In this document: piece after piece, positions 1,659 to 25,741 of the stretch
How the letters are laid out: every line of letters begins with the position of its first letter
Numbering within the stretch: the stretch's first letter is position 1
Source of the DNA: a virus
Taxonomy: Duplodnaviria > Heunggongvirae > Uroviricota > Caudoviricetes
Direction: 5' to 3' (one strand)
Length of the DNA stretch: 28,749 nt
Virus record (IMG/VR): IMGVR_UViG_2925914267_000002
Notes under the pieces: model-generated
Database searches by the model: none
Seen by the model: the letters and a program-made list of their open reading frames with translations, nothing else
Told to the model about the DNA's origin: nothing
Program-made: the position numbers and the translations under genes

Positions 1659-4130
1659 TTAAGAATCAGCCTGACTCGGGATCAGTTTTTGCCAGATAAC
1701 TGAAACGTATTTTGCCTGGTAACGGGCGTCATCAAGTGCATTATGGCGCTCACCTTCGAATGGAATAGCCGTTCTGGCATCGAAGTCTATGGCTTTCCCC
1801 AGCTCAACGATTGTGCGTACATCGCGATCGTTGTAGTAACGCCACGGGCAGGGGATCCCCTGCCGTTCGTATGAACGGCGCAAAATCGTGTTGTCGAAGT
1901 TGGCTCCATTTCCCCAAACCTGAACAAAAAATTCACCGGAGTTTTCGTCGATAAATTCCCGCAATTGTAACAGTGCATCATCTAACGGGATTTCATCGGT
2001 CATAATGGCAGATTGCGCTTCGCGTGATTGCTTAAGCCACCATTTAATGGTGTCCCGATCAATGACTCCGCCAGCAGTTTCCAGATCGATAGTCTTACTA
2101 AATTCCGGTCCCATATCTCCGGTTTGCGGATCGAAAAATATTGCACCTATTGAGATGATCGGGGCATCAGGATTTTTTCCCATGGTTTCAAGGTCGATCA
2201 TTAGATGGTCACACGTCCTGCTGGTGGATGTGATTTCATGATGACCGTTCACCTTAATTGAGTGATCTGCCGTCTCGCCAGTTTCATTATCGCTATTGTG
2301 ATGCTGATTGCCGCCAGTGTTCTCCTTGTGTGGATGTTCAGCGCCTTCCATTTCCTCCGGATCATCTTCCTGAACTTCAACCTGATACTCTTCATCGAAT
2401 GTTTCCTGGTATGTTGCGTCGCCCATCACCGCGCCACAATCAGGGCAGTTGCCGCCGCCGGTCTGACCGCAGGCGGTGCAGACTTTTTCCACTTCCTGTT
2501 GCGCCACTGGTTCAGGCTGTTTCGTTTCTGGCTCGTTTTGTAACGCATTTGGGCTGTTTTGTTCCGCTTTTTGGTAGTTCCGTTCCGATTCATGCTGGTT
2601 CTGGTTCACAGAATCGCGGGTCTGGATCCCCTTAACCCATTTCGGATCATTCGGGTCACTAATCCCTTCAACAAATTCACCACGTGATGCAGCAAGCAAC
2701 TTATCGGCGTCAGGCTGGCTGATATTGGCTGCCTGCATAATTTTGTTTACTTCGTCAGCGGTAACTTTTATCGGTTCTGGTTGTTCTGAATCTTCAGCGG
2801 TATCTACATTTTGCGGTAAGCCCGTGTATGTGCCATTTTTTCGGGCAAAATATTCTTCTTTTGTGATTTCAGTGGCGCCAGCAGCCAGTGCCTTATCCAG
2901 ACCAGAAAGTTTGTTTGCGCGACCGTATTTTTCTCCGTCCTTATCTGCGAAGAGGAAATAGAACGGCCCCTCACGCTCTACAGATGGTTCAGCTTCCGGC
3001 GCGGTTTCATTTTTTGGGATATCAGATACCTCAGTTTCCACTGCATCAGTTTGTGTTTCTGATGACTGGAGAACATCAACAGTGCCCAGGTCTGTTTCTT
3101 CATTCTCAAACACGCCCTTTGTCGTCAGGTATTCGCAGATATATTTGTTCAGTGCTACGGGATCTTTGTGAATGTCGATCGGACGCTCACGGACAAGGCC
3201 AAAAATAGTTTGGCGGTCGTAGCGAAGGGCATCAGGCTGTTTGCGCATTGATGCCGAGATACGCTTCCAGTCTTCGCGGTCGTTGTCGATAACTTCTTTT
3301 TTTGCCCAGCGATGGATGCTGCCGTCAATGTTTCCGGCATCCACATCACCAGGCCAGAGAGCGTAGGCCAGTTCGTCATCCAGTGTTTTCCATGTCTGCT
3401 TGTATTCGCGATGAATGGCAGCAATGACCGGGCTGATTTTTCCTGTTGAATTTTCAGTGTACTGTTGATTGGCTCTGGTGCGGGCGAGATCAACAACAGA
3501 CGTGTATTTTCCGGTTTCCTTGCGTTCACCTTCGCGACGTTTTTTCCAGATGCGCATCTCTGCCTGAATTTCGGGCCATTTAGCACCAGGAATACATTTA
3601 TGCTTAACCCACCCAATGGCGTGCAACTTAAGCTCCGGAAACATGGCGTTAACTTCTGGCATTTTCATCAACGCTTCAACGATATGTCCGTCGAATGTTG
3701 CCATGTCTTCCTGCAACAATTCCTGTGCGCTAATAACCATATCAACGGTGATGTTTTCACATGTGTCGAACTTAACCATGACAGCGTTCTGTACTTCAGG
3801 GGCCAGCTTGTCAAAAGTGACGTTCATCGGATCGGATTTAGTCTCAACCGGGACAAAAGAAGCAGACTCCTCATCCCAGCGGTTTTCCTGCATATATTCA
3901 GCATCCCATGAATCGAGGGCAGGGCGGGGTATGCCAGGTTTATCCTCGCAGACAATAAATTTATAAGCGCAGTCCTGAGCAGCCGGATAATGTTCCAGGA
4001 ACTGCCAGTGAAATTTTGCTCGAGCACGGCGTTCGTCGCCAGCTTCAATGGCTGTGGCTACAGCCACAGCGCCTTCTTCCCTTGTTGCCAGTTCGTCAGG
4101 AATAGCGGCGCAAATAAAGACTTTACTCAT
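1659..4130 (-). CDS. Large prophage exonuclease with C-terminal DEDDh 3'-5' exonuclease domain (often annotated exodeoxyribonuclease VIII-like)
   Basis: 823-aa ORF. C-terminal motifs HLMIDLETMG (Exo I D-x-E), WGNGANFD (Exo II) and HNALDDARY (Exo III H-x4-D). Central acidic low-complexity linker containing a CxxC-x13-CxxC zinc-ribbon-like motif (CTACGQTGGGNCPDCG). Confidence 0.7.
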   Translation of the reverse strand: MSKVFICAAIPDELATREEGAVAVATAIEAGDERRARAKFHWQFLEHYPAAQDCAYKFIVCEDKPGIPRPALDSWDAEYMQENRWDEESASFVPVETKSDPMNVTFDKLAPEVQNAVMVKFDTCENITVDMVISAQELLQEDMATFDGHIVEALMKMPEVNAMFPELKLHAIGWVKHKCIPGAKWPEIQAEMRIWKKRREGERKETGKYTSVVDLARTRANQQYTENSTGKISPVIAAIHREYKQTWKTLDDELAYALWPGDVDAGNIDGSIHRWAKKEVIDNDREDWKRISASMRKQPDALRYDRQTIFGLVRERPIDIHKDPVALNKYICEYLTTKGVFENEETDLGTVDVLQSSETQTDAVETEVSDIPKNETAPEAEPSVEREGPFYFLFADKDGEKYGRANKLSGLDKALAAGATEITKEEYFARKNGTYTGLPQNVDTAEDSEQPEPIKVTADEVNKIMQAANISQPDADKLLAASRGEFVEGISDPNDPKWVKGIQTRDSVNQNQHESERNYQKAEQNSPNALQNEPETKQPEPVAQQEVEKVCTACGQTGGGNCPDCGAVMGDATYQETFDEEYQVEVQEDDPEEMEGAEHPHKENTGGNQHHNSDNETGETADHSIKVNGHHEITSTSRTCDHLMIDLETMGKNPDAPIISIGAIFFDPQTGDMGPEFSKTIDLETAGGVIDRDTIKWWLKQSREAQSAIMTDEIPLDDALLQLREFIDENSGEFFVQVWGNGANFDNTILRRSYERQGIPCPWRYYNDRDVRTIVELGKAIDFDARTAIPFEGERHNALDDARYQAKYVSVIWQKLIPSQADS

Positions 4131-4223
4131 TTTGTTTTAACCTCATGACAGATTTAAGGATGAACAAATCCCTGCCATTGCTGGCATATAAGAATGAAAC
4201 CGGATATTTATTACGGAACTGTT

Positions 4224-4415
4224 TTAAAGACCTGCCGGGATTTCGATATTATCCTGGTGAATAACTTTATCGACCGGGTAACAGTTACCGGGAATTTTCT
4301 GTTCGGTTGCTGCAGTCATACACTCCTGCATTGTCTTGTGAACACTGACTGCAATATCAACTGGCTCTCCGGAAACAAGAAAAACTGTCAGAACAAGCGC
4401 AAATGCTGAATTCAT
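4224..4415 (-). CDS. ydfD: YdfD-like small protein (start at internal Met of the 81-aa track ORF)
   Basis: 63-aa product MNSAFALVLTVFLVSGEP... with hydrophobic N-terminus; start overlaps the dicB stop (operon coupling). Resembles K-12 Qin YdfD as I recall it. Confidence 0.6.
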   Translation of the reverse strand: MNSAFALVLTVFLVSGEPVDIAVSVHKTMQECMTAATEQKIPGNCYPVDKVIHQDNIEIPAGL

Positions 4416-4644: not shown

Positions 4645-4947
4645 ATGAGCAGAAAAACCCAACGTTACTCTAAAGAGTTCAAAGCCGAAGCTGTCAGAAC
4701 GGTTCTTGAAAATCAACTTTCGATCAGTGAAGGCGCTTCCCGATTATCTCTTCCTGAAGGCACTTTAGGGCAATGGGTTACCGCCGCCAGAAAAGGGCTC
4801 GGTACTCCTGGTTCCCGCACGGTGGCTGAACTGGAATCTGAAATTCTGCAACTGCGTAAGGCGTTAAATGAAGCTCGCCTTGAGCGAGATATATTAAAAA
4901 AAGCAACAGCGTATTTTGCACAGGAGTCGCTGAAAAATACGCGTTAA
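4645..4947 (+). CDS. IS3-family transposase OrfA (HTH)
   Basis: 100-aa ORF MSRKTQRYSKEFKAEAVRTV... with a leucine-zipper-like C-terminus typical of IS3-family OrfA. Confidence 0.9.
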   Translation: MSRKTQRYSKEFKAEAVRTVLENQLSISEGASRLSLPEGTLGQWVTAARKGLGTPGSRTVAELESEILQLRKALNEARLERDILKKATAYFAQESLKNTR

Positions 4948-4982
4948 TCGAACAATGGCGACAACAATTTCCCATTGAAGCG

Positions 4983-5801
4983 ATGTGTCAGGTATTTGGT
5001 GTATCCAGGAGCGGTTATTACAACTGGGTACAGCATGAACCCTCAGACAGAAAACAAAGTGATGAGCGGCTAAAACTGGAGATTAAGGTGGCACATATCC
5101 GCACTCGCGAAACATATGGAACCCGGCGGCTCCAGACGGAGCTGGCAGAGAATGGCATCATCGTTGGTCGTGACCGACTGGCACGTCTTCGTAAGGAGCT
5201 AAGGCTACGCTGTAAGCAGAAACGCAAGTTCAGAGCGACTACGAACTCGAACCACAATCTGCCAGTTGCGCCAAATCTGCTGAACCAGACGTTCGCTCCT
5301 ACAGCACCAAATCAGGTCTGGGTGGCGGACCTGACGTATGTTGCCACACAGGAGGGATGGTTGTACCTCGCTGGCATCAAAGATGTTTATACGTGCGAAA
5401 TTGTCGGCTACGCCATGGGAGAGCGCATGACAAAAGAGCTGACAGGTAAAGCCCTGTTTATGGCGCTCAGGAGCCAGCGCCCACCTGCCGGGCTAATCCA
5501 CCACTCTGATCGAGGTTCACAGTACTGCGCATACGATTACCGGGTCATACAGGAGCAGTTTGGTCTGAAAACATCAATGTCGCGTAAAGGTAACTGTTAC
5601 GACAACGCTCCGATGGAAAGCTTCTGGGGAACGCTGAAAAATGAGAGCCTGAGCCACTATCGTTTTAATAACCGGGATGAAGCCATCTCAGTAATACGGG
5701 AATACATTGAGATTTTCTACAATCGTCAGCGTCGTCACTCTCGTCTGGGGAATATCTCCCCGGCAGCCTTCAGGGAAAAATATCATCAGATAGCTGCTTA
5801 A
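4983..5801 (+). CDS. IS3-family transposase OrfB (DDE catalytic domain), probably expressed as an OrfAB fusion by -1 frameshift
   Basis: 272 aa from the first Met, in the -1 frame relative to orfA. Contains DDE-type integrase-core motifs (WVADLTY, HSDRGSQY, YDNAPMESFW). Confidence 0.9.
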   Translation: MCQVFGVSRSGYYNWVQHEPSDRKQSDERLKLEIKVAHIRTRETYGTRRLQTELAENGIIVGRDRLARLRKELRLRCKQKRKFRATTNSNHNLPVAPNLLNQTFAPTAPNQVWVADLTYVATQEGWLYLAGIKDVYTCEIVGYAMGERMTKELTGKALFMALRSQRPPAGLIHHSDRGSQYCAYDYRVIQEQFGLKTSMSRKGNCYDNAPMESFWGTLKNESLSHYRFNNRDEAISVIREYIEIFYNRQRRHSRLGNISPAAFREKYHQIAA

Positions 5802-5867: not shown

Positions 5868-6036
5868 TATGGCGTCCTCAACAATGAATTTTGTGATGCA
5901 GTGCCTGGTGCCTCCAGGTGACGTTAACCAGTTAACAATTAACGCCGGATACAGAGAATCCACCCATAACACTGTTTTTGGTTTTAACTGTTCCGCGTGC
6001 GCTTAGCCGCATTCACCGCATCACAAAATTCACTTT

Positions 6037-6094
6037 AAAAACGGCGGCAGAGCAGTCACGGAGTAAAACTGATACCGCCAAACGTCACCAGAAA
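6037..6094 (-). ncRNA. dicF: DicF small regulatory RNA, with terminator U-tract
   Basis: Minus-strand sequence TTTCTGGTGACGTTTGGCGGTATCAGTTTTACTCCGTGACTGCTCTGCCGCCGTTTTT matches the DicF sRNA as I recall it. Lies between the ydfA-like genes and dicB as in K-12 Qin; 3' GC-rich stem plus U-run. Confidence 0.75.
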
Positions 6095-6369
6095 ATTGAT
6101 AACAGAGGGCGTTGCAGCGGGGTTGTCACTTAAGCGTATGGTCAACCTGACAACTCGGTGTCCTCAACGGGGAAGGAATAACCCCGCCATACTTACCGCC
6201 GCGCCATTTCGCGGGTTGCCACAACCGGAAGCGCACGGTCGAATTAAATTTAACGACACCGTACAGTGAGACGAACTTCGCCGTGCGCTTTCGTGTTGTG
6301 TGCCTGCTTTTAACCACGTCAGGCGAGGTGGTATCCTTCTTATCCCGAATAACCAAGAAGGAAATCTAT

Positions 6370-6570
6370 ATGACTAAAGAAGAATTTGTCTCTTATATTT
6401 TTGATAAAACGGTTGAAATGTATGCCGCTACTTACGGGTCCTGTAATCCTCTGAATAAACCAGAGGGGAAAGATGATTTCGACAAAATTTACCGCTTCTT
6501 GGAGGACCGCTATATCAAAAGGTTAGAGGACGCAGGGATCAAATCCCCAGTGAAGTCACCATTGTCCTGA
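6370..6570 (+). CDS. Hypothetical small protein (67 aa from internal Met of track ORF 6283-6570)
   Basis: ATG at 6370 preceded by AAGGA; product MTKEEFVSYIFDKTVEMYAATYG... Lies on the strand opposite the dicB operon and overlaps the 3' end of the 6539-6916 ORF, so it is uncertain. Confidence 0.3.
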   Translation: MTKEEFVSYIFDKTVEMYAATYGSCNPLNKPEGKDDFDKIYRFLEDRYIKRLEDAGIKSPVKSPLS

Positions 6571-6916
6571 GAACTTGCAGGACGTCATGATCGTAACTTC
6601 CATCCAAACCGCGACGGCAAATTGCTTCTCGTATTACCGGAAGCAGTTCGCTGGAAATCTCGGTGCATATTTCACCTGCTAATACGCCTGGCTCAAGTGA
6701 GAATATTGGTGAACTTACGGTCTTGGTCTCGACAGTTTCAGAGTCAGTGCCAACATTATAAAGCTCAACGAAAGCGGTCTTGATTTTCCGGGCCAGATCT
6801 TTTGCTGGCTCGCTTGCAATATCTTTCCCGATTTCTCGCAGCACAGAATGCAATGTATGAGCTGCTGTTTTCTGTACATCAGACGGTAAATCTTTAAATT
6901 CCATCGTCAGCCTCAT
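6539..6916 (-). CDS. Hypothetical protein in the dicB-operon leader region (YdfB/YdfC-equivalent position)
   Basis: 125-aa ORF (possible start MEFKDLPSDVQ...) between the ydfA-like gene and dicF on the operon strand. Family not recognised with certainty. Confidence 0.45.
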   Translation of the reverse strand: MRLTMEFKDLPSDVQKTAAHTLHSVLREIGKDIASEPAKDLARKIKTAFVELYNVGTDSETVETKTVSSPIFSLEPGVLAGEICTEISSELLPVIREAICRRGLDGSYDHDVLQVLRTMVTSLGI

Positions 6917-7068
6917 CAGTCAGTGTTTCTGGCTAACCAGCAACGCGCGCCAGATTCGGTTTTAAACGTTTTGCTTTTGGTATATGTCATCGCGGTGAAC
7001 GTACCGTCCTGGTTGGGGAACACGCCACATACCAGAGATTCGCTGTTGCCAAGATCGATAGTATCCAT
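6916..7068 (-). CDS. ydfA: YdfA-like small protein (first gene of the dicB operon)
   Basis: 50-aa product MDTIDLGNSESLVCGVFPNQDGTFTAMTYTKSKTFKTESGARCWLARNTD from the internal Met of track ORF 6916-7224; resembles K-12 YdfA as I recall it. Confidence 0.55.
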   Translation of the reverse strand: MDTIDLGNSESLVCGVFPNQDGTFTAMTYTKSKTFKTESGARCWLARNTD

Positions 7069-7149
7069 GCTGACCTCATTTCCCCTTAACGCCGGGGTAG
7101 CGGAACTGTTTGCTGAGAACACCGTGCGGTGTGTTGATGGAGGTAATTT

Positions 7150-7196
7150 AGTTTTCTCATTATTTTTCGTCAAGGATTTTTGATGAGAAAACTCAA
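7150..7196. promoter_or_regulatory. Candidate operator in the promoter region of the dicB operon
   Basis: Perfect 11-bp inverted repeat AGTTTTCTCAT (7150-7160) / ATGAGAAAACT (7183-7193) with a 22-bp spacer. The 13-mer TGAGAAAACTCAA (7184-7196) recurs at 7720-7732 upstream of the dicC-like gene. Confidence 0.45.
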
Positions 7197-7260
7197 GTAT
7201 TGGCGCAAGATAAAGCCAATACATTGAAATGTAAGGCTTTAAAATTTTGTGAAGGGATGA

Positions 7261-7668
7261 TTATTGATGCTTGTTGCGTTTGCGAGCCTCTAATAGCTCG
7301 GTGAACAGGCGATTAAAATTCTCAACGCGGGCGCGGAGTTCGCTGAGTTGTGCTTGTTGCTCTGATTTAGGAAGTGCGCGATACAAACGCAGCATCTCTA
7401 ACTCATCTTCCGATAAGTCTAAGGCACTATCGAGTGAAACAGGGGGAGCTGGTGTTTTGTCCTCGTCGCCAAACAGTATCCAGGTTGGTGAACATTGCAA
7501 TACCTCGGCGAGGCGATGCAAATTTTGCCCGCGCGGGGCTGTATGGTCACTTTCCCATAATGAAATTGATGAGCCAGATACGCCAGCAGCTTTGCTTAAA
7601 CCGTTTTGACTTAAGCCTACCTGCTTACGTCTTTCTCTAATGCGTTGACCTAAAGTTTTCTCGTTCAT
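7261..7668 (-). CDS. dicA: DicA-like HTH (XRE-family) repressor, cI analogue
   Basis: 135-aa product from internal Met (MNEKTLGQRIRERRKQVGLSQ...). HTH motif and the stretch VLQCSPTWILFGDEDK match DicA as I recall it; divergent from a Cro/DicC-like gene. Confidence 0.85.
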   Translation of the reverse strand: MNEKTLGQRIRERRKQVGLSQNGLSKAAGVSGSSISLWESDHTAPRGQNLHRLAEVLQCSPTWILFGDEDKTPAPPVSLDSALDLSEDELEMLRLYRALPKSEQQAQLSELRARVENFNRLFTELLEARKRNKHQ

Positions 7669-7718
7669 ATTTAGATATCTTAATAACCCTTGACTTGAGA
7701 TTCCTTGAGTGATTAGCA

Positions 7719-7732
7719 TTGAGAAAACTCAA
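7719..7732. promoter_or_regulatory. Candidate operator between the dicA-like and dicC-like genes
   Basis: TTGAGAAAACTCAA (inverted ends TTGAG/CTCAA) 14 bp upstream of the dicC-like start; core 13-mer identical to 7184-7196. Additional TTGAG copies at 7695 and 7705. Confidence 0.4.
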
Positions 7733-7745
7733 TACTGGAGGTGCG

Positions 7746-7973
7746 ATGTTTAAATCAGACGTAATTAATTTTTACGGTACGAAAGCCAAAGTAGCGAAAG
7801 CTGCTGGCGTTGACCCATCTGCTGTTTCTCAATGGCAAGAGCTGGTTCCTGAAGGTCGCGCGATGCGTCTACAGGAGGCATCTGGCGGCGAGCTTCTGTA
7901 TGATCCCAAGGTTTATGACGAATATCGTAAGACGAAGCGGGCGGGGCGGTTGAACAATGAAAATCACTCCTGA
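7746..7973 (+). CDS. dicC: DicC/Cro-like small regulator
   Basis: 75-aa product from internal Met (MFKSDVINFYGTKAKVAKAAGVDPSAVSQWQ...); divergent from the dicA-like repressor; HTH-like N-terminus. Confidence 0.6.
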   Translation: MFKSDVINFYGTKAKVAKAAGVDPSAVSQWQELVPEGRAMRLQEASGGELLYDPKVYDEYRKTKRAGRLNNENHS

Positions 7974-10084: not shown

Positions 10085-10435
10085 TTAAGTCTGAGCCTCA
10101 CTCTCTTGGCCATAAGTGGCTTGCCAGTATCTCGCCGTAGGGTTCATTAGAATGTGCAATACAAGCCACCATGCAAAAATGCAGGGAGGTTGATTGTAGT
10201 AACCGGCAGGCACATATCCGTGAGCTAGTTGATTTCGTAAATCACCATAGATTTTATCTACCAGTAAGGCCTGAAGATTGCCAATTATGTCTACGCCGAA
10301 AGCTTCAATAATCAGTGGATTATCTAGTAATCCCTTGAGTCCATTTCGCTCTTGCGAACCGTCCCCGTGAAGCTGCGATGGTTCCTCACCTTTAATTTTA
10401 GCCACATATCTCAGACTATTTTCGATCTGGGGAAT
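10085..10435 (-). pseudogene. C-terminal part of an IS629-disrupted large gene; carries a HEPN-type R-x4-H-G motif
   Basis: Continues in frame from the 11746-13185 ORF once IS629 and one AAT repeat are removed (junction ...CHVLI-PQIENSLRY-VAKIKGEE...). Contains DLRNQLAHGY. Confidence 0.6.
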
Positions 10436-10489
10436 TGAACCGCCCCGGAAATCCTGGAGACTAAACTCCCTGAGAAAGAGGTAAACAGG

Positions 10490-10816
10490 ATGACTAAAAA
10501 TACTCGTTTTTCCCCCGAAGTCCGTCAGCGGGCGATTCGTATGGTTCTGGAAAGTCAGGATGAATATGACTCACAGTGGGCGGCAATTTGTTCCATTGCC
10601 CCAAAGATTGGCTGTACGCCGGAGACTCTGCGTGTCTGGGTTCGCCAGCATGAGCGGGATACCGGGGGCGGTGATGGTGGGCTCACCAGTGCTGAACGTC
10701 AGCGTCTGAAAGAGCTGGAACGTGAAAATCGTGAACTGCGCCGCAGTAACGATATCCTTCGCCAGGCTTCCGCTTATTTTGCGAAGGCGGAGTTCGACCG
10801 CCTCTGGAAAAAATGA
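10490..10816 (+). CDS. IS629 transposase OrfA
   Basis: 108-aa [26 protein letters not shown]..., typical IS3-family OrfA. Confidence 0.9.
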
Positions 10817-11703
10817 TGCCACTGCTGGATAAGCTGCGTGAGCAGTACGGGGTCGGACCGGTATGCAGCGAACTGCATATTGCCCCGTCAACGTATTACC
10901 ATTGTCAGCAACAGCGACATCATCCGGATAAACGCAGTGCCCGTGCGCAGCACGACGACTGGCTGAAGAGAGAGATACAGCGCGTATACGATGAAAATCA
11001 TCAGGTGTACGGTGTGCGTAAAGTCTGGCGTCAGTTGTTACGGGAAGGAATCAGGGTAGCCAGATGTACAGTGGCGCGCCTCATGGCGGTTATGGGACTT
11101 GCCGGTGTTCTCCGGGGTAAAAAGGTCCGCACTACCGTCAGCCGGAAAGCCGTTGCCGCAGGCGACCGCGTAAACCGTCAGTTTGTGGCAGAACGACCTG
11201 ACCAGCTGTGGGTGGCTGATTTTACTTACGTCAGCACATGGCAGGGCTTCGTCTATGTGGCGTTTATCATTGATGTGTTTGCCGGATACATCGTGGGGTG
11301 GCGGGTCTCATCGTCTATGGAAACGACATTCGTGCTGGATGCGCTGGAGCAGGCGTTGTGGGCCCGTCGTCCGTCTGGCACCATCCATCACAGCGATAAA
11401 GGCTCTCAGTATGTGTCACTGGCCTATACGGAGCGACTAAAAGAAGCCGGATTACTGGCATCAACAGGGAGTACAGGCGACTCGTATGACAACGCGATGG
11501 CTGAGAGCATCAATGGTCTTTACAAAGCGGAGGTAATACACCGTAAGAGCTGGAAAAACCGTGCAGAAGTGGAACTGGCCACACTAACGTGGGTGGACTG
11601 GTATAACAATCGACGATTGCTGGGAAGGCTGGGCCATACTCCTCCGGCAGAAGCAGAAAAAGCTTATTATGCTTCCATCGGAAACGATGATCTGGCAGCC
11701 TGA
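10813..11703 (+). CDS. IS629 transposase OrfB (DDE domain)
   Basis: 296-aa ORF overlapping orfA (ATGA); DDE-type motifs [25 protein letters not shown]. Confidence 0.9.
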
Positions 11704-11745
11704 GTTCACAGATAAAACACTCTCCAGGAAACCCGGGGCGGTTCA

Positions 11746-13185
11746 AATCAACACGTGGCATGCCGTCATAAAATCTCCATTGAAACCGCAAACCATACCC
11801 TTGATGAAAAACTCTTCATGCCCAAACGGGATGAAGGGATGATTGATGAACATATCGCGAAAAAACGCCTCCGAGATTGGATATTTCATTGTGATCTCAT
11901 CTGTAGCAGGAATAATTTGCCCAGCTACTGCCAACTCATGGTCGATACGCATTCTCGTCATCATTATGGGCCAAATAACTGCCCCATTTGCATCATCAAT
12001 CCCCAATCCTGCGGGTATGTGAGCAAGTGTCATTCCCTCATGATCAATATGTGTTGATCCAAACATCCAAGCTATGCTGTTGGCCTTTTGTTCTATTGCT
12101 TGAGCCTTAAGTCTCTCAATGCTGGTTGGCCGACAGACCAGCATCGCAAGTCTGAAAACCATATCAAACAAATCTCTTCCGACTACCCGACTCTTGGCTT
12201 GATGGACAATCTCACTAATATCTTGAGGGGGAGACTGAAGGATAGACATCTGGTGACGGGATTCGATTTGGTAATCACGCATTTCTTCATACAGCGCAAG
12301 ACGTTCTATTCGGGTTCCTGGAATATTAGCCAGTGCTTCAATAGCATTCTGCATGCAGGCTGCCGAAATCATACCGCCATCTTGGAATTTTGACTCTTCC
12401 AGATGTGTATCGGCAAGAAGCCGCCAGAATTCAAACTGTGTATCTCTGTCACAGCACCTATTCGCAATCGGGATTGCGGTTTTACAGGCATCGACGGCAA
12501 ATGAAAATAATTTTTGAGCCAGATAGTTTTTTGTCAGAAACAGGAGTTCCTGGGCAATAAAAGATGGCTCACTCACTTTACAGTCGATATCGAGTTGCAG
12601 GAGTCGCAGCGGATAAGGTGAATCGCCTTGTTCTCTGGTACGTTCATACTCTGCTAGTAGATGTGCCGAAAGCTGATCAAATTCATCCCTGAAATCAGTA
12701 TTCTTTCGAAAAAAACAACACAGCCTAAGCGCACGCTCTAGGCGTTCTAAAGCACTAACCCACGTCCCTTGCGATGTCATAATAGCTATACTGGACGCAT
12801 AATAAGCACGGACTGCCAGCAAAGGAAAACGGATTCCACCAATTTTACGAACCCAAAGTGTATCAGCAATACGAGCTTGAAGTTCGGGTAGCTCTATCGT
12901 CGGGCAAAATTGAGAAAGTACCTCCAGCGACAACCCGTTAATGTCATCCGGAATTGCAGATCTACCTTGGCTGCTTTGAAAGCACGGACCAAATGGTACC
13001 TGTGGATTTTCGGGACGAAAGTGAAAACCGCAAATATGGGTTAGCAGTCTTATCTCCGCTCTTCCATCACCTAGGCTAGAAAGATACTTTGTGATATCAA
13101 AGCAGGTAACTGGCAGCTTACTCTGGATTAAGGGGGATAAATCAATAGTGTTAAGTTCGTCGAGGCTGATATTAATATCGTCCAT
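11746..13185 (-). pseudogene. N-terminal 480 codons of the IS629-disrupted HEPN-motif gene
   Basis: The 480-aa track ORF ends on a stop codon located inside the IS629 right end (11743-11745), so the native reading frame continues beyond the IS. No NTPase motif seen. Confidence 0.6.
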
Positions 13186-13859
13186 GTCGTCACCTTGATG
13201 ATTTGTTAATGCGGGGGCAACATTAATAAATGTACTTGAGACCGCAATTTGTCGATGGAGCCAACATTTATAACTATGTGCTTCTACCCTCTGAATTTTT
13301 ACATGTGAATTGCTAGCTTGAATAGCTCTATCATTATATACGTGGCACTAAATTATGGCTGTTTTTCGCTCAAAGCGGACTAGAAGGTTAGCTTGTGTCG
13401 GACTTTGCGTATTAAAAGAAGTGCTGGTGGTGACTAGTGGTTGTGCCCCATTTCCACAGAAAAAATCAGAGAAACTATACCCAATAGTTGTATTGAATCA
13501 CTGACGAGACAGCCTCATATTCATCAGGACTGGTCTACGTCCAATACAGGAGGTTGTGGTGCTGGTTCTCAAATGTGCGCTGGCTATTACGGCTGTAATG
13601 GCGATTTATTGTCTTGCTATTGTTCTTATGGATCGCCTTTCTGACTGATTTCATATTGGCGAGGTAACGGTAGTTAAGTAGAATGGCTGCGGGTGCTTGA
13701 GGCTATCTGCCTCGGGCATGAACACCAAAGGCAGATAGAGAAAAGCCCCAGTTAACATTACGCGTCCTGCAAGACGCTTAACATTAATCTGAGGCCAATT
13801 TCATGCTAGACACATGTAGGTTAGCCTCTTACGTGCCGAAAGGCAAGGAGAAGCAGGCT

Positions 13860-14015
13860 ATGAAGCAGCAAAAGGCGATGTTAATCGCCCTGATCGTCAT
13901 CTGTTTAACCGTCATAGTGACGGCACTGGTAACGAGGAAAGACCTCTGCGAGGTACGAATCCGAACCGGCCAGACGGAGGTCGCTGTCTTCACAGCTTAC
14001 GAACCTGAGGAGTAA
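13860..14015 (+). CDS. hokD: Hok-family type I toxin (HokD/RelF-like)
   Basis: 51-aa product MKQQKAMLIALIVICLTVIVTALVTRKDLCEVRIRTGQTEVAVFTAYEPEE from ATG 13860 (RBS AAGGAGAA); single TM helix; matches HokD/RelF as I recall it. An in-frame ATG at 13803 extends the frame by 19 codons. Confidence 0.9.
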   Translation: MKQQKAMLIALIVICLTVIVTALVTRKDLCEVRIRTGQTEVAVFTAYEPEE

Positions 14016-17279: not shown

Positions 17280-17579
17280 AAAAATTCCTTAATACTGATA
17301 ACTTGGCGCACTATACACACGTTCCTGAAGAAAGCTATAGTTTTTTGATGGGGTTGAAGATGGCTGGATGTCTAAAATAAACATTGCTTCATATGTTCAA
17401 CTATGCGTTAATGATTGCGTCGGTTTGAAGAACAGACGATATACGAAGTAGTTTACTAAAGCAGTTCTCATTTCAGGTGTTATTCACTTATTCCTTCTTT
17501 GAGTCTCTCCAATTAAGTACGAAGTCGTTTCTGTTATGCAAACCATTTATGCCGAAAGGCTCAAGTTAAGGAATGTAGA

Positions 17580-17795
17580 ATGTCAAATAAAATGACTGGT
17601 TTAGTAAAATGGTTTAACGCTGATAAAGGTTTCGGCTTTATTTCTCCTGTTGATGGTAGTAAAGATGTGTTTGTGCATTTTTCTGCGATTCAGAATGATA
17701 ATTATCGAACCTTATTTGAAGGTCAAAAGGTTACCTTCTCTATAGAGAGTGGTGCTAAAGGTCCTGCAGCAGCAAATGTCATCATTACTGATTAA
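17580..17795 (+). CDS. cspB: Cold-shock protein CspB
   Basis: 71-aa [74 protein letters not shown]; about 300-nt leader region shared divergently with cspF. Confidence 0.9.
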
Positions 17796-18075
17796 AATTC
17801 ATCGCTCGTCTGTATACGATAACGAAGAAGGCTGATGCCTGAGTAGAGATACGGACAGAGTAGTGAATATTGGATCTCTTTAATAAAAAGTAAGGAGGTC
17901 CAATACATGAAACAATGGCTAGCATATTTGGCAAAATCTTAATCAGGAAAAGTATGCTAACCATTGTGGTGAAGTGCAGGTTTGCTGCATGAATAGTTTT
18001 ACAGCAGAAGCTAACTGCTGGCATGGCAAAACAAAGTGCGTAAGTGGATGACTCCCACAAAAAGCACCACAATCT

Positions 18076-20102: not shown

Positions 20103-20465
20103 GGTAATATTAAATCGGAACATTTACATCGCGGAATGTAAAATTTAAATAAAAAGGACTCTTCCATGAGCCAAAATTCCTGAAATCTTAAGGGTAAGAT
20201 AAAAGGTCTTAATCAGAATGACACGTTTTATTAATAAATAAAGCTATTCTTTCATTGCTGTGTTTTTCTTTACAAAAGTAATCCTTGCTATGGGTGGTTA
20301 ATCATGCGTTAATGGTGTTCTGGTTTGTTACAAATTTATCTGAAGCAGTCATTGTTATAATTTTATTATTTGTACCTCTTGAGATTTCCTTGTTGGTTTT
20401 TCTCTCTGATATTTTTTTTTCGGACCATTCTGCCCAAGGGCTAATTTCTTCAAAAGGTAATAATT

Positions 20466-20678
20466 ATGTCTAACAAAATGACTGGTTTAGTGAAATGGTT
20501 TAACCCTGAAAAAGGTTTTGGTTTCATCACGCCGAAAGATGGCAGCAAAGATGTGTTTGTCCATTTCTCAGCAATTCAGAGCAACGATTTCAAAACATTA
20601 ACTGAGAATCAGGAAGTTGAATTTGGTATTGAGAACGGACCTAAAGGTCCTGCCGCTGTTCATGTAGTGGCGCTTTGA
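20466..20678 (+). CDS. cspI: Cold-shock protein CspI
   Basis: 70-aa [73 protein letters not shown]; long leader (20103-20465). Confidence 0.9.
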
Positions 20679-20711
20679 GGTAGACAATATTACAAACCAT
20701 ATTCACTTTAG

Positions 20712-21182: not shown

Positions 21183-21686
21183 TTATTGATAGTGTTTTAT
21201 GTTCAGATAATGCCCGATGACTTTGTCATGCAGCTCCACCGATTTTGAGAACGACAGCGACTTCCGTCCCAGCCGTGCCAGGTGCTGCCTCAGATTCAGG
21301 TTATGCCGCTCAATTCGCTGCGTATATCGCTTGCTGATTACGTGCAGCTTTCCCTTCAGGCGGGATTCATACAGCGGCCAGCCATCCGTCATCCATATCA
21401 CCACGTCAAAGGGTGACAGCAGGCTCATAAGACGCCCCAGCGTCGCCATAGTGCGTTCACCGAATACGTGCGCAACAACCGTCTTCCGGAGCCTGTCATA
21501 CGCGTAAAACAGCCAGCGCTGGCGCGATTTAGCCCCGACGTATCCCCACTGTTCGTCCATTTCCGCGCAGACGATGACGTCACTGCCCGGCTGTATGCGC
21601 GAGGTTACCGACTGCGGCCTGAGTTTTTTAAGTGACGTAAAATCGTGTTGAGGCCAACGCCCATAATGCGGGCAGTTGCCCGGCAT
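21183..21686 (-). CDS. insB: IS1 InsB (transposase catalytic part, made as InsAB' by frameshift)
   Basis: 167-aa [19 protein letters not shown]... overlapping insA. Confidence 0.95.
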
Positions 21687-21880
21687 CCAACGCCATTCAT
21701 GGCCATATCAATGATTTTCTGGTGCGTACCGGGTTGAGAAGCGGTGTAAGTGAACTGCAGTTGCCATGTTTTACGGCAGTGAGAGCAGAGATAGCGCTGA
21801 TGTCCGGCGGTGCTTTTGCCGTTACGCACCACCCCGTCAGTAGCTGAACAGGAGGGACAGCTGATAGAAACAGAAGCCAC
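21605..21880 (-). CDS. insA: IS1 InsA
   Basis: 91-aa zinc-finger/HTH protein [40 protein letters not shown]... Confidence 0.95.
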
Positions 21881-22807: not shown

Positions 22808-23382
22808 TGGCATTCAGAATGAGTGAACAACCACGGACCATAAAAATTTATAATCTGCTGGCCGGAACTAATGAATTTATTGGTGAAGGTGATGCATATA
22901 TTCCGCCTCATACAGGTCTGCCAGCAAACAGTACCGATATTGCACCGCCAGATATTCCGGCTGGCTTCGTGGCTGTTTTCAACAGTGATGAGTCATCGTG
23001 GCATCTCGTTGAAGATCATCGGGGTAAAACGGTTTATGACGTGGCTTCCGGCGACGCGTTATTTATTTCTGAACTCGGTCCGTTACCGGAAAATGTTACC
23101 TGGTTATCGCCGGAAGGGGAGTTTCAGAAGTGGAACGGCACAGCCTGGGTGAAGGATACGGAAGCAGAAAAACTGTTCCGGATCCGGGAGGCGGAAGAAA
23201 CAAAAAACAACCTGATGCAGGTAGCCAGTGAGCATATTGCGCCGCTTCAGGATGCTGCAGATCTGGAAATCGCAACGGAGGAAGAAATCTCGTTGCTGGA
23301 AGCATGGAAAAAGTATCGGGTATTGCTGAACCGTGTTGATACGTCAACTGCACAGGATATTGAATGGCCAGCACTGCCGTAG
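22807..23382 (+). CDS. tfaQ: Tail fibre assembly protein (Tfa)
   Basis: 191-aa ORF; start overlaps the stf stop (TAATG); Tfa-like sequence and position. Confidence 0.85.
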
Positions 23383-24569: not shown

Positions 24570-25436
24570 CTAAGCGAGGTTCTTGTTTTCAAATTGTTCC
24601 GGACTGAGGCCGCCACACCAACTGTGCCGCCGCCACCGATTGTAATCACATTCGATATAATTAAACACCGTTGCCCGCATTATTTCCCGGCTGATAAAGT
24701 GTTCTCCATGGATACATTCCACTTTCAGCGAATGAAAGAAGCTTTCCACGCAGGCATTATCGTAGCAGCAACCTTTTGCGCTCATACTTCCACGCAGATT
24801 ATGCCGCTTCAGTTGCGCCTGATAATCTGCTGAACAGTACTGGCCTCCACGGTCCGTGTGAACGATAACGTTCCGGGGCCTCTTACGCCGCCACAGCGCC
24901 ATCTGCAGGGCATCGCAGGCCAGTTGCGCCGTCATGCGTGGCGACATTGACCAGCCAATAACGGCACGTGACCACAGGTCAATGACCACTGCCAGATACA
25001 GCCAGCCTTCATCTGTACGTAAGTACGTGATGTCTCCTGCCCACTTCTGGTTCGGGCCACTGGCGTAAAAATCCTGCTCCAACAGATTTTCTGACACAGG
25101 CAGGCCGTGTGCGCGGTAGCTGACCGGGCTGAACTTCCGGGAGGCCTTTGCCCTCAGTCCCTGACGGCGCAGGCTTGCCGCCACGGTTTTTACGTTAAAG
25201 GGGTAACCCTGAGCACGCAGTTCATCCGTCAGGCGTGGGGCACCGTAACGCTGTTTTGACCGGGTAAAAGCCGCGAGGACAACGCTGTCGCAGTGTTGGC
25301 GGAACTGCTGACGCGTGCTTATCCTTGTCCGCCGCTGACACCACGTATACCAGCCGCTGCGGGCCACCCGGAGCACGCGGCACATTGCTTTGATGCTGAA
25401 CTCAGCCTGATGTTTTTCAATAAAGACATACTTCAT
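24570..25436 (-). CDS. insF: IS3 transposase OrfB (InsF)
   Basis: 288-aa DDE-domain ORF overlapping orfA. Confidence 0.95.
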
Positions 25437-25741
25437 TTCAGGCGCTTCGCGAAGTATGTCGCGGCCTTTTGGAGGATAGCCAGCTCTTCATCCCGTTCTG
25501 CCAGCTGGCGTTTGAGACGTGCAATCTCGGTAGACATCTCCAGTTCACGTTCAGAAGACGTCTGCTGATTTTGCTGTTTACTGCGCCAGTTGTAGAGTTG
25601 TGATTCATACAGGCTGAGTTCACGGGCTGCGGCAGTAACACCGATGCGTTCAGCAAGCTTCAGGGCTTCACTGCGAAATTCAGGCGAATGCTGTTTACGG
25701 GGTTTTTTACTGGTTGATACTGTTTTTGTCATGTGAGTCAC
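25433..25741 (-). CDS. insE: IS3 transposase OrfA (InsE)
   Basis: 102-aa [38 protein letters not shown]... Confidence 0.95.

Follow-up and report, generated by a model that had tools for sequence, protein, structure and literature searches.

A HEPN-domain gene split by IS629 in a Qin-like prophage is an inactivated allele of a predicted phage defense family

The 28,749-nucleotide stretch of DNA analyzed here (IMG/VR virus record IMGVR_UViG_2925914267_000002, Caudoviricetes; referred to below as the window) covers a Qin-like lambdoid prophage integrated next to rspAB/ynfA. One gene of this prophage has recently been inactivated by the insertion sequence (IS) IS629; when rejoined, it encodes a 595-amino-acid protein with an N-terminal DUF7380 domain and a C-terminal DUF4209 domain of the HEPN superfamily. 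The intact product is, in our judgment, rather likely to be a self-contained sensor and HEPN RNase that acts in abortive infection. The family is already catalogued and has been predicted repeatedly, and the copy in the window is no new system but an inactive allele of a known defense candidate.

RESULTS

A single gene is split by IS629

Positions are given throughout in window coordinates, and residues and codons of the rejoined gene are numbered from 1 to 595; the features of the locus are collected in Table 1. The element that separates the two parts of the gene is an IS3-family IS of 1310 bp, whose termini are inverted repeats, each end beginning TGAACCGCCCCGG; it is flanked by a 3-bp target duplication, AAT. 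It encodes overlapping orfA (10490-10816) and orfB (10813-11703) reading frames, and an ALIL frameshift pseudoknot was identified within it by Rfam (10771-10887, 121 bits). A length of ~1.3 kb, terminal inverted repeats, a 3-bp duplication, and orfA/orfB with a programmed -1 frameshift are the features of IS629/IS1203, and the element is labeled IS3-like IS1203 family in RefSeq.

The locus had first been described from its letters and open reading frames (ORFs) only, and this sequence-only reading proposed that IS629 divides one gene whose halves rejoin in frame. The 480-amino-acid minus-strand ORF (11743-13185) does end inside the right end of the IS, its C terminus (...CHVLI) being followed by TGA at 11743-11745. 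When the IS and one AAT copy are removed, the minus-strand segments 13185..11749 and 10435..10085 join in frame to give 1788 nt encoding 595 amino acids; the junction reads ...CHVLI-PQIENSLRY-VAKIKGEE..., and DLRNQLAHGY occupies residues 544 to 553. The insertion point lies between I480 and P481, directly before the invariant PQIENSLR of predicted catalytic helix 1. The same reading had equated the 3' piece with a 106-amino-acid ORF at 10085-10405. That ORF does lie in the 3' part of the gene, but it covers only what lies downstream of an internal GTG; the complete fragment comprises codons 480 to 595 (10085-10435, minus strand).

In RefSeq, the N-terminal 480-amino-acid piece is recorded separately as a "DUF7380 domain-containing protein," and the other piece as a 160-amino-acid "DUF4209 domain-containing protein" (10085-10567, minus strand), the annotated start of which is an isoleucine codon within IS629, one codon past an in-frame stop. 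Since its start codon is isoleucine, not ATG, GTG, or TTG, and comes after an in-frame stop, the 160-amino-acid coding sequence is best read as an annotation artifact, and the two pieces should be marked as one pseudogene. A scan for promoter and terminator consensus sequences around the split gene gave nothing above chance. The window copy is an inactive null allele, because the 480-amino-acid product lacks the entire HEPN domain, and the HEPN fragment lacks a promoter, a ribosome-binding site, and a start codon.

Table 1. Features of the split gene, its surroundings, and the other IS elements of the prophage, in window coordinates
Feature	Position	Strand	Basis or remarks
5' part of split gene, codons 1-479	11749-13185	-	Start ATG at 13183-13185; Shine-Dalgarno AAGGTGA just upstream; identical to intact alleles
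DUF7380 N-terminal domain, residues 4-166	12688-13176	-	Pfam PF24098, E 2e-34
Right AAT copy	11746-11748		Minus-strand codon I480 of the shortened 480-amino-acid ORF
IS629/IS1203	10436-11745	+	orfA, orfB, ALIL, RefSeq; right end gives the TGA
Left AAT copy	10433-10435		Codon I480 of the rejoined gene
3' part of split gene, codons 480-595 and stop	10085-10435	-	HEPN domain
DUF4209/EMARD_N match, residues 484-573	10154-10423	-	Pfam PF13910, E 3e-8; C6orf70-family HEPN core
PQIENSLR, residues 481-488 of helix-1 motif LIPQIENSLR	10409-10432	-	Alignments
Predicted catalytic motif R546-N-Q-L-A-H551-G552 (R-x4-H-G)	10217-10237	-	Sequence and alignments
AT-rich intergenic region of ~500 bp, gene start to sok/hokD	13186-13690		GC 0.42; presumed promoter region
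sok antisense RNA and hokD toxin gene, one edge of the cargo slot, outside the system	13691-14015	+	Rfam sok, 118 bits; ORF; RefSeq
IS600 splitting dicB	~4645-5801		Coordinates converted from RefSeq NZ_CP025842.1
IS1A beside shortened tail-fiber gene	~21183-21880		Coordinates converted from RefSeq NZ_CP025842.1
IS3 splitting ydfK	~24570-25732		Coordinates converted from RefSeq NZ_CP025842.1

Intact alleles are under selection, and the gene is repeatedly lost in E. coli

The rejoined DNA matched uninterrupted genes at 99.7 to 100% identity in 152 of 5426 complete Escherichia coli genomes, with the match spanning 80% or more of the query in 147. These intact alleles occupy the same slot, between hokD and the replication-side DUF977 gene. 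The allele of strain ATCC 25922 (Seattle 1946), with an intact 595-amino-acid product (WP_000340969.1, locus NP429_RS11805), differs from the rejoined gene at 2 nt. The exact IS junction was present in only one of the 5426 genomes, that of E. coli 720632 (NZ_CP025842.1), to which the window is 100% identical; the prophage belongs to this strain or to one nearly identical to it. The insertion of IS629 is judged to be recent because neither half has decayed further: there are only 2 substitutions relative to ATCC 25922. Between the window allele and that of a Klebsiella plasmid there are 54 nucleotide but only 15 amino acid differences, which points to purifying selection on the intact copies.

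The gene is patchily distributed (~3% of E. coli genomes) and is repeatedly inactivated or lost. E. coli FHI_NMBU_11 (NZ_CP045712.1; L016, 1501-4601) carries a second, independent IS3-family insertion. Its IS end falls near nt 1241 of the gene, which places it ~200 nt upstream of the IS629 site, and the N-terminal fragment is annotated as 426 amino acids. Shortened forms of 392 to 563 amino acids are common in the 90% cluster.

The protein combines DUF7380 with a HEPN domain of the C6orf70 family

A search of the rejoined protein against Pfam identified DUF7380 near the N terminus and DUF4209 near the C terminus (Table 1), the latter with 33.9 bits against a gathering cutoff of 22.3; PF13910 is renamed EMARD_N in a newer Pfam release. 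Both domains were found in all 45 homologues scanned. The C6orf70 (ERMARD) family, to which DUF4209 corresponds, has counted as part of the HEPN superfamily since 2013 (Anantharaman et al., PMC3710099). That study described it as bearing an Rx4-6H motif, predicted to be active, represented more often among bacteria than among eukaryotes, fused to TPRs in some cases, and found in operons related to restriction-modification. No match to NCBIfam was obtained, and the only PHROGs matched were two families of unknown function, 5183 and 31613. The rejoined protein contains no Walker A or B motif, as the sequence-only reading had also noted, and no convincing transmembrane segment.

A word-indexed search retrieved 156 relatives, nearly all of ~600 amino acids and with both domains, from Enterobacteriaceae, Vibrio, Aeromonas, Pseudomonas, and cyanobacteria. 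An exhaustive profile search extended the family to 7410 representatives of 50%-identity clusters at an E value of ≤1e-3, and to 2803 at ≤1e-30; the best 150 of the 7410 representatives are all ~570 to 670 amino acids long and were matched over nearly their full length. Throughout the family the architecture is the same, with DUF7380 at the N terminus, an α-helical, TPR-like region next, and the DUF4209 HEPN domain at the C terminus.

The sequence-only reading had recognized an R-x4-H-G motif of the HEPN type and had asked whether uninterrupted homologues in other prophages keep its R and H residues. They do. Conservation was assessed in three alignments (A1, A2, and A4, of 34, 45, and 19 sequences), which reach down to 24% identity and include the relatives from P2 phages. 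R546, H551, and G552 are invariant in all three, as are L479, Q482, E484, S486, and R488 of the helix-1 motif LIPQIENSLR, with N485 nearly so; the R-x4-H-G motif was present in 262 of the 264 near-full-length relatives retrieved. E484, together with N485, would supply the polar or acidic helix-1 residue that completes the predicted HEPN active site. As a side observation, a C-terminal extension of ~45 amino acids (DPWVxFAGMFKDDPLFDEFVEDMxxYRRELD; A1 columns ~665 to 710) is conserved in four of the aligned homologues (P0075, P0110, P0116, and P0120); one carrier is the cyanobacterium Trichocoleus, and the proteobacterial members do not have the extension.

Predicted fold of the C-terminal domain

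A full-length structure model was made on an intact allele (P0001) that is 99% identical to the rejoined protein. In this model, LIPQIENSLR lies on a helix formed by residues 472 to 493, and R546-NQLA-H551-G552 lies at helix 545-551, so that the R-x4-6-H motif stands at the start of the predicted catalytic helix. The modeled core is an all-α, four-helix up-and-down bundle, as expected of a HEPN domain. The window-encoded residues 480 to 595 were modeled separately, with a predicted local distance difference test (pLDDT) score of 87.5. A Foldseek search of the PDB with this second model gave no significant match; AbiA, the sacsin HEPN domain, Csm6, Cas13b, MtlR, and HepS stand among the lower-ranked entries of the structure comparison. 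Full-length and C-terminal sequence profiles run against PDB sequences identified no solved relative, and weak TPR or chance matches in that search (TrkA kinase, for example) were not taken as relatives.

Family members occupy phage cargo slots, plasmids, and chromosomal islets

Temperate phages carry members of the family in three or more cargo slots, and further members are found on plasmids and in small islets of the chromosome. The first slot is that of the Qin-like prophage, where the split gene lies between replication-side genes (the DUF977 gene and its neighbors) and sok/hokD-rem-ydfU-Q antiterminator, antisense to both flanks. At the equivalent place K-12 Qin carries hokD-relE-relB-ydfV-flxA, which marks the slot as variable and agrees with the earlier suggestion of a cargo position next to hok, occupied in K-12 by relBE. 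The second slot directly follows the Q antiterminator and precedes the lysis genes; its occupants include a homologue from Enterobacter kobei (39% identity) and others on IMG/VR contigs (40%). On one lambdoid viral contig (L036), AbiLi/AbiLii (2238-4337; PADLOC E values of 4e-86 and 4e-21) lie 1.7 kb upstream of a 40%-identical family member (5995-7809). The third slot is the gpA-gpQ hotspot of P2-like phages, in which full-length members of 612 to 643 amino acids match the PADLOC candidate system PDC-S39 at E values of 1e-67 to 1e-85. Defense genes are the best-known cargo of both the gpA-gpQ slot in P2 and the post-Q slot. Relatives were found on 35 IMG/VR viral contigs altogether. In the hotspot table of Rousset et al. 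(2022), "DUF4209" appears twice: it ranks 13th, with 193 occurrences, as system #13, and is entered again, with 76 occurrences, as system #55; the sequence given for #13 is the vB_EcoM-569R9 protein.

Beyond phages, 97%-identical copies are carried on Klebsiella IncFIB/IncFII conjugative plasmids. In the Klebsiella pneumoniae plasmid NZ_CP031801.1 (L013, 8001-9788), the gene is bordered on one flank by umuDC and a group II intron and on the other by IS110, ardA, ssb, and a methyltransferase gene. On a Natrinema plasmid, a copy with 29% identity adjoins a restriction endonuclease gene.

The sequence-only reading saw no partner gene at the locus, and the wider comparison bears this out. We looked for a recurring neighbor in E. 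coli, Enterobacter, Vibrio, Aeromonas, Pseudomonas, the Klebsiella plasmids, the Natrinema plasmid, and a P2-like phage and found none; in Pseudomonas, the neighbors are different again. A same-strand ORF of ~160 amino acids follows the gene in both Vibrio cholerae (L003, 11958-12440) and Aeromonas media (L012, 11912-12391). It was considered as a conserved partner and rejected: the two ORFs are mutually unrelated and gave no significant Pfam and no PADLOC match, and their similar size and position look coincidental. In the loci examined, the system is thus a single gene with no obligatory partner, which is also the organization of PDC-S39.

The family is already listed as a defense candidate

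The sequence-only reading did not recognize the family and took it to be possibly undescribed; on this point, it was mistaken. Besides the two Pfam domains and the HEPN assignment of 2013, the rejoined protein matched two PADLOC models of PDC-S39, PDLC05011 and PDLC05012, at E values of 3.6e-102 and 6.9e-102 over residues 43 to 581 of 595. The same two models are matched by the Vibrio, Pseudomonas, cyanobacterial, haloarchaeal, and P2-phage relatives. DefensePredictor (Science 2026) lists a 595-amino-acid entry, WP_021514655.1, as a "predicted novel defense gene" (log-odds 4.3 to 5.7), in a cluster that includes WP_001429192.1, which also belongs to the 90% cluster of intact allele P0001. In its HHblits tables, the nearest known defense protein is AbiJ, by way of the C-terminal HEPN domain (probability 67 to 73, ~19% of the length). 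The proposal of a single-gene defense module was made independently, as a prediction, by PADLOC and DefensePredictor. No paper mentioning DUF7380 or WP_000340969 was found, and literature searches on P2-EC46/ORF612 and on ERMARD as a HEPN protein gave nothing useful.

Comparison with known systems

With its near-full-length match, its length of ~600 amino acids, and its single-gene organization, the window gene is a member of PDC-S39, from which it shows no structural difference; PDC-S39 is itself a candidate system only, and the window copy is disrupted by the IS. The relationship to C6orf70/ERMARD lies in the C-terminal 90 residues, which score above the PF13910 gathering threshold and keep the DLR...HG motif. 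Eukaryotic members of that family were described as having a transmembrane segment and as associated with the endoplasmic reticulum (PMC3710099), whereas in the E. coli protein no such segment is convincingly predicted and the N terminus is the bacterial DUF7380 domain; the two are set side by side here through family descriptions and PF13910 alone.

HepS, from an accessory slot of the lambdoid prophage Gifsy-1 of Salmonella, is a solo HEPN protein of abortive infection and an auto-inhibited anticodon nuclease (Sargen et al., Nature 2026; PMC13043305). It is harmless when expressed alone and cuts tRNA once bound to the phage tail-tip protein J (PMC13043305). The solved chain of HepS has 218 residues, with its motif at R100-H105, and neither DUF7380 nor a TPR-like region; the two proteins have no detectable sequence similarity. 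Neither homology beyond the generic HEPN core nor the form of a small tetrameric solo HEPN, which would place the E. coli protein in the HepS family, was found, and the likeness probably concerns the way of working, not family membership.

AbiJ of lactococci is likewise a single-protein abortive infection system with a C-terminal HEPN domain. Its N-terminal domains are unrelated, however, and the similarity is limited to the HEPN core and falls below the usual confidence thresholds; the PADLOC scan of the rejoined protein returned only the two PDC-S39 models. The type VII toxin-antitoxin system HepT-MntA pairs a HEPN toxin with an MNT antitoxin. No MNT nucleotidyltransferase gene adjoins the DUF4209 gene in any locus examined, and the DUF4209 protein is four times larger than HepT, which argues that control must be intramolecular or trigger dependent.

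Other features of the prophage

Four IS elements are present in the prophage: IS600 in dicB, IS629 in the HEPN gene, IS1 (IS1A), and IS3 in ydfK (Table 1). With four different elements present, a general burst of IS activity suffices to explain the disruption of the HEPN gene. Rfam also identified the sok antisense RNA adjoining hokD (13691-13865, plus strand), the DicF small RNA (6042-6093, minus strand), two thermoregulator leaders of the cspA type at cspB and cspI (17419-17811 and 20319-20705, plus strand), and a member of the "IS009" small RNA family near pinQ/tfaQ (23150-23348, plus strand).

DISCUSSION

We favor the view that the intact protein senses infection and responds through its own HEPN RNase domain. 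The helical N-terminal two thirds, DUF7380 and the TPR-like region, would keep the HEPN domain inactive and recognize a trigger made by the phage, and recognition would release or assemble HEPN dimers. In such dimers, the paired R546/H551 motifs, with E484/N485 of helix 1, may form a composite RNase site that would cut host RNA, phage RNA, or both (tRNA, rRNA, or mRNA). The infected cell would then stop supporting the phage, at its own cost, and the lysogen population and the prophage would be protected, as in abortive infection. The closest precedent for an auto-inhibited sensor-effector of this kind is HepS, in the equivalent accessory slot of Gifsy-1. The present analysis establishes the structure of the gene, its family, the conserved motifs, the likeness of fold, the lack of a partner gene, and the setting in mobile cargo slots; RNase activity, dimerization, the trigger, and the defense phenotype are inferred.

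Several observations weigh against this interpretation. When the 45 homologues were compared with Pfam at E values of ≤10, no HEPN-clan model other than DUF4209 was matched. Many contexts of the gene are plain chromosomal islets without known defense neighbors, and the Klebsiella plasmid copy lies toward the leading region, beside ardA and ssb. The window copy is nonfunctional, so the gene cannot be tested in its own strain without repair. We found no published experiment on any family member, PDC-S39 appearing in the searchable literature only as a genome-survey prediction; DUF4209 proteins are not among the P2-hotspot systems validated by Rousset et al. (2022), and the gene is not among the transcription units cloned by the DefensePredictor authors.

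Among the alternatives, the strongest is that the protein is a HEPN RNase serving some other conflict between mobile elements, in plasmid exclusion or hindrance, as an addiction-type toxin that stabilizes its carrier element, or in counter-defense by degrading host immune RNAs or signals. The plasmid leading region is a zone known for anti-defense genes too, and on the Klebsiella IncF plasmid the gene stands on that side, by ardA, ssb, and the methyltransferase gene and in the same orientation; prophages, P2-like phages, and conjugative plasmids all carry the gene, and in the Qin-like prophage it adjoins hok/sok, a post-segregational killing module. The bracketing of the Klebsiella copy by IS110 and a group II intron, however, suggests an accessory insertion, not a core leading-region gene. 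Also against this alternative, neither an antitoxin nor any partner gene is conserved, and the gene is present in stable chromosomal islets too. The phage contexts favor defense, given the usual cargo of the gpA-gpQ and post-Q slots, and both PADLOC and DefensePredictor place the gene on the defense side. We consider this alternative unlikely, though less so than the one that follows.

A housekeeping or regulatory function in the service of prophage or host, such as RNA processing or that of a noncatalytic HEPN scaffold like MtlR, is improbable; on this view, the protein would have nothing to do with conflict, and its location in cargo slots would be incidental. Such a role fits poorly with a patchy, mobile distribution that extends from ~3% of E. 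coli genomes to 97%-identical copies on Klebsiella plasmids, with repeated loss and disruption, and with the position of the gene in known hotspots of variable cargo; the invariance of the R, H, and E residues argues against a noncatalytic scaffold. Lastly, the idea that the rejoined frame joins two unrelated ORFs by accident, which would require only a one-in-three prior chance of a shared frame across the IS, is refuted by the uninterrupted, 99.7 to 100% identical genes in 147 genomes, by homologues from 24% identity upward that align across the junction inside an invariant motif, and by the perfect 3-bp duplication.

The window alone adds little, being a broken copy of a gene that is already in RefSeq and already a listed candidate. 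The abortive-infection protein that we propose for the intact allele is nonetheless worth testing: the family is large and constant in architecture, it recurs in cargo slots that hold validated defense genes, it is intact in the standard strain ATCC 25922, and it shares the HEPN family of its catalytic domain with human ERMARD. Were such a test positive, the HepS/Tha class would gain a solo system that combines sensor and RNase, and what is now a candidate in databases would become a characterized system. More tentatively, the DUF7380-TPR-HEPN protein might be a mechanistically distinct single-protein immune sensor, with a HEPN module that is the prokaryotic counterpart of the human ERMARD/C6orf70 domain, conserved since the last eukaryotic common ancestor. 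If an intact allele is indeed a trigger-activated RNase, the family would be a widespread one in defense: it has over 7000 clusters at 50% identity, is often found in the P2 hotspot, and occurs on resistance-type plasmids of Klebsiella. Such a finding would also offer a first functional handle on ERMARD, a human protein associated with disease.

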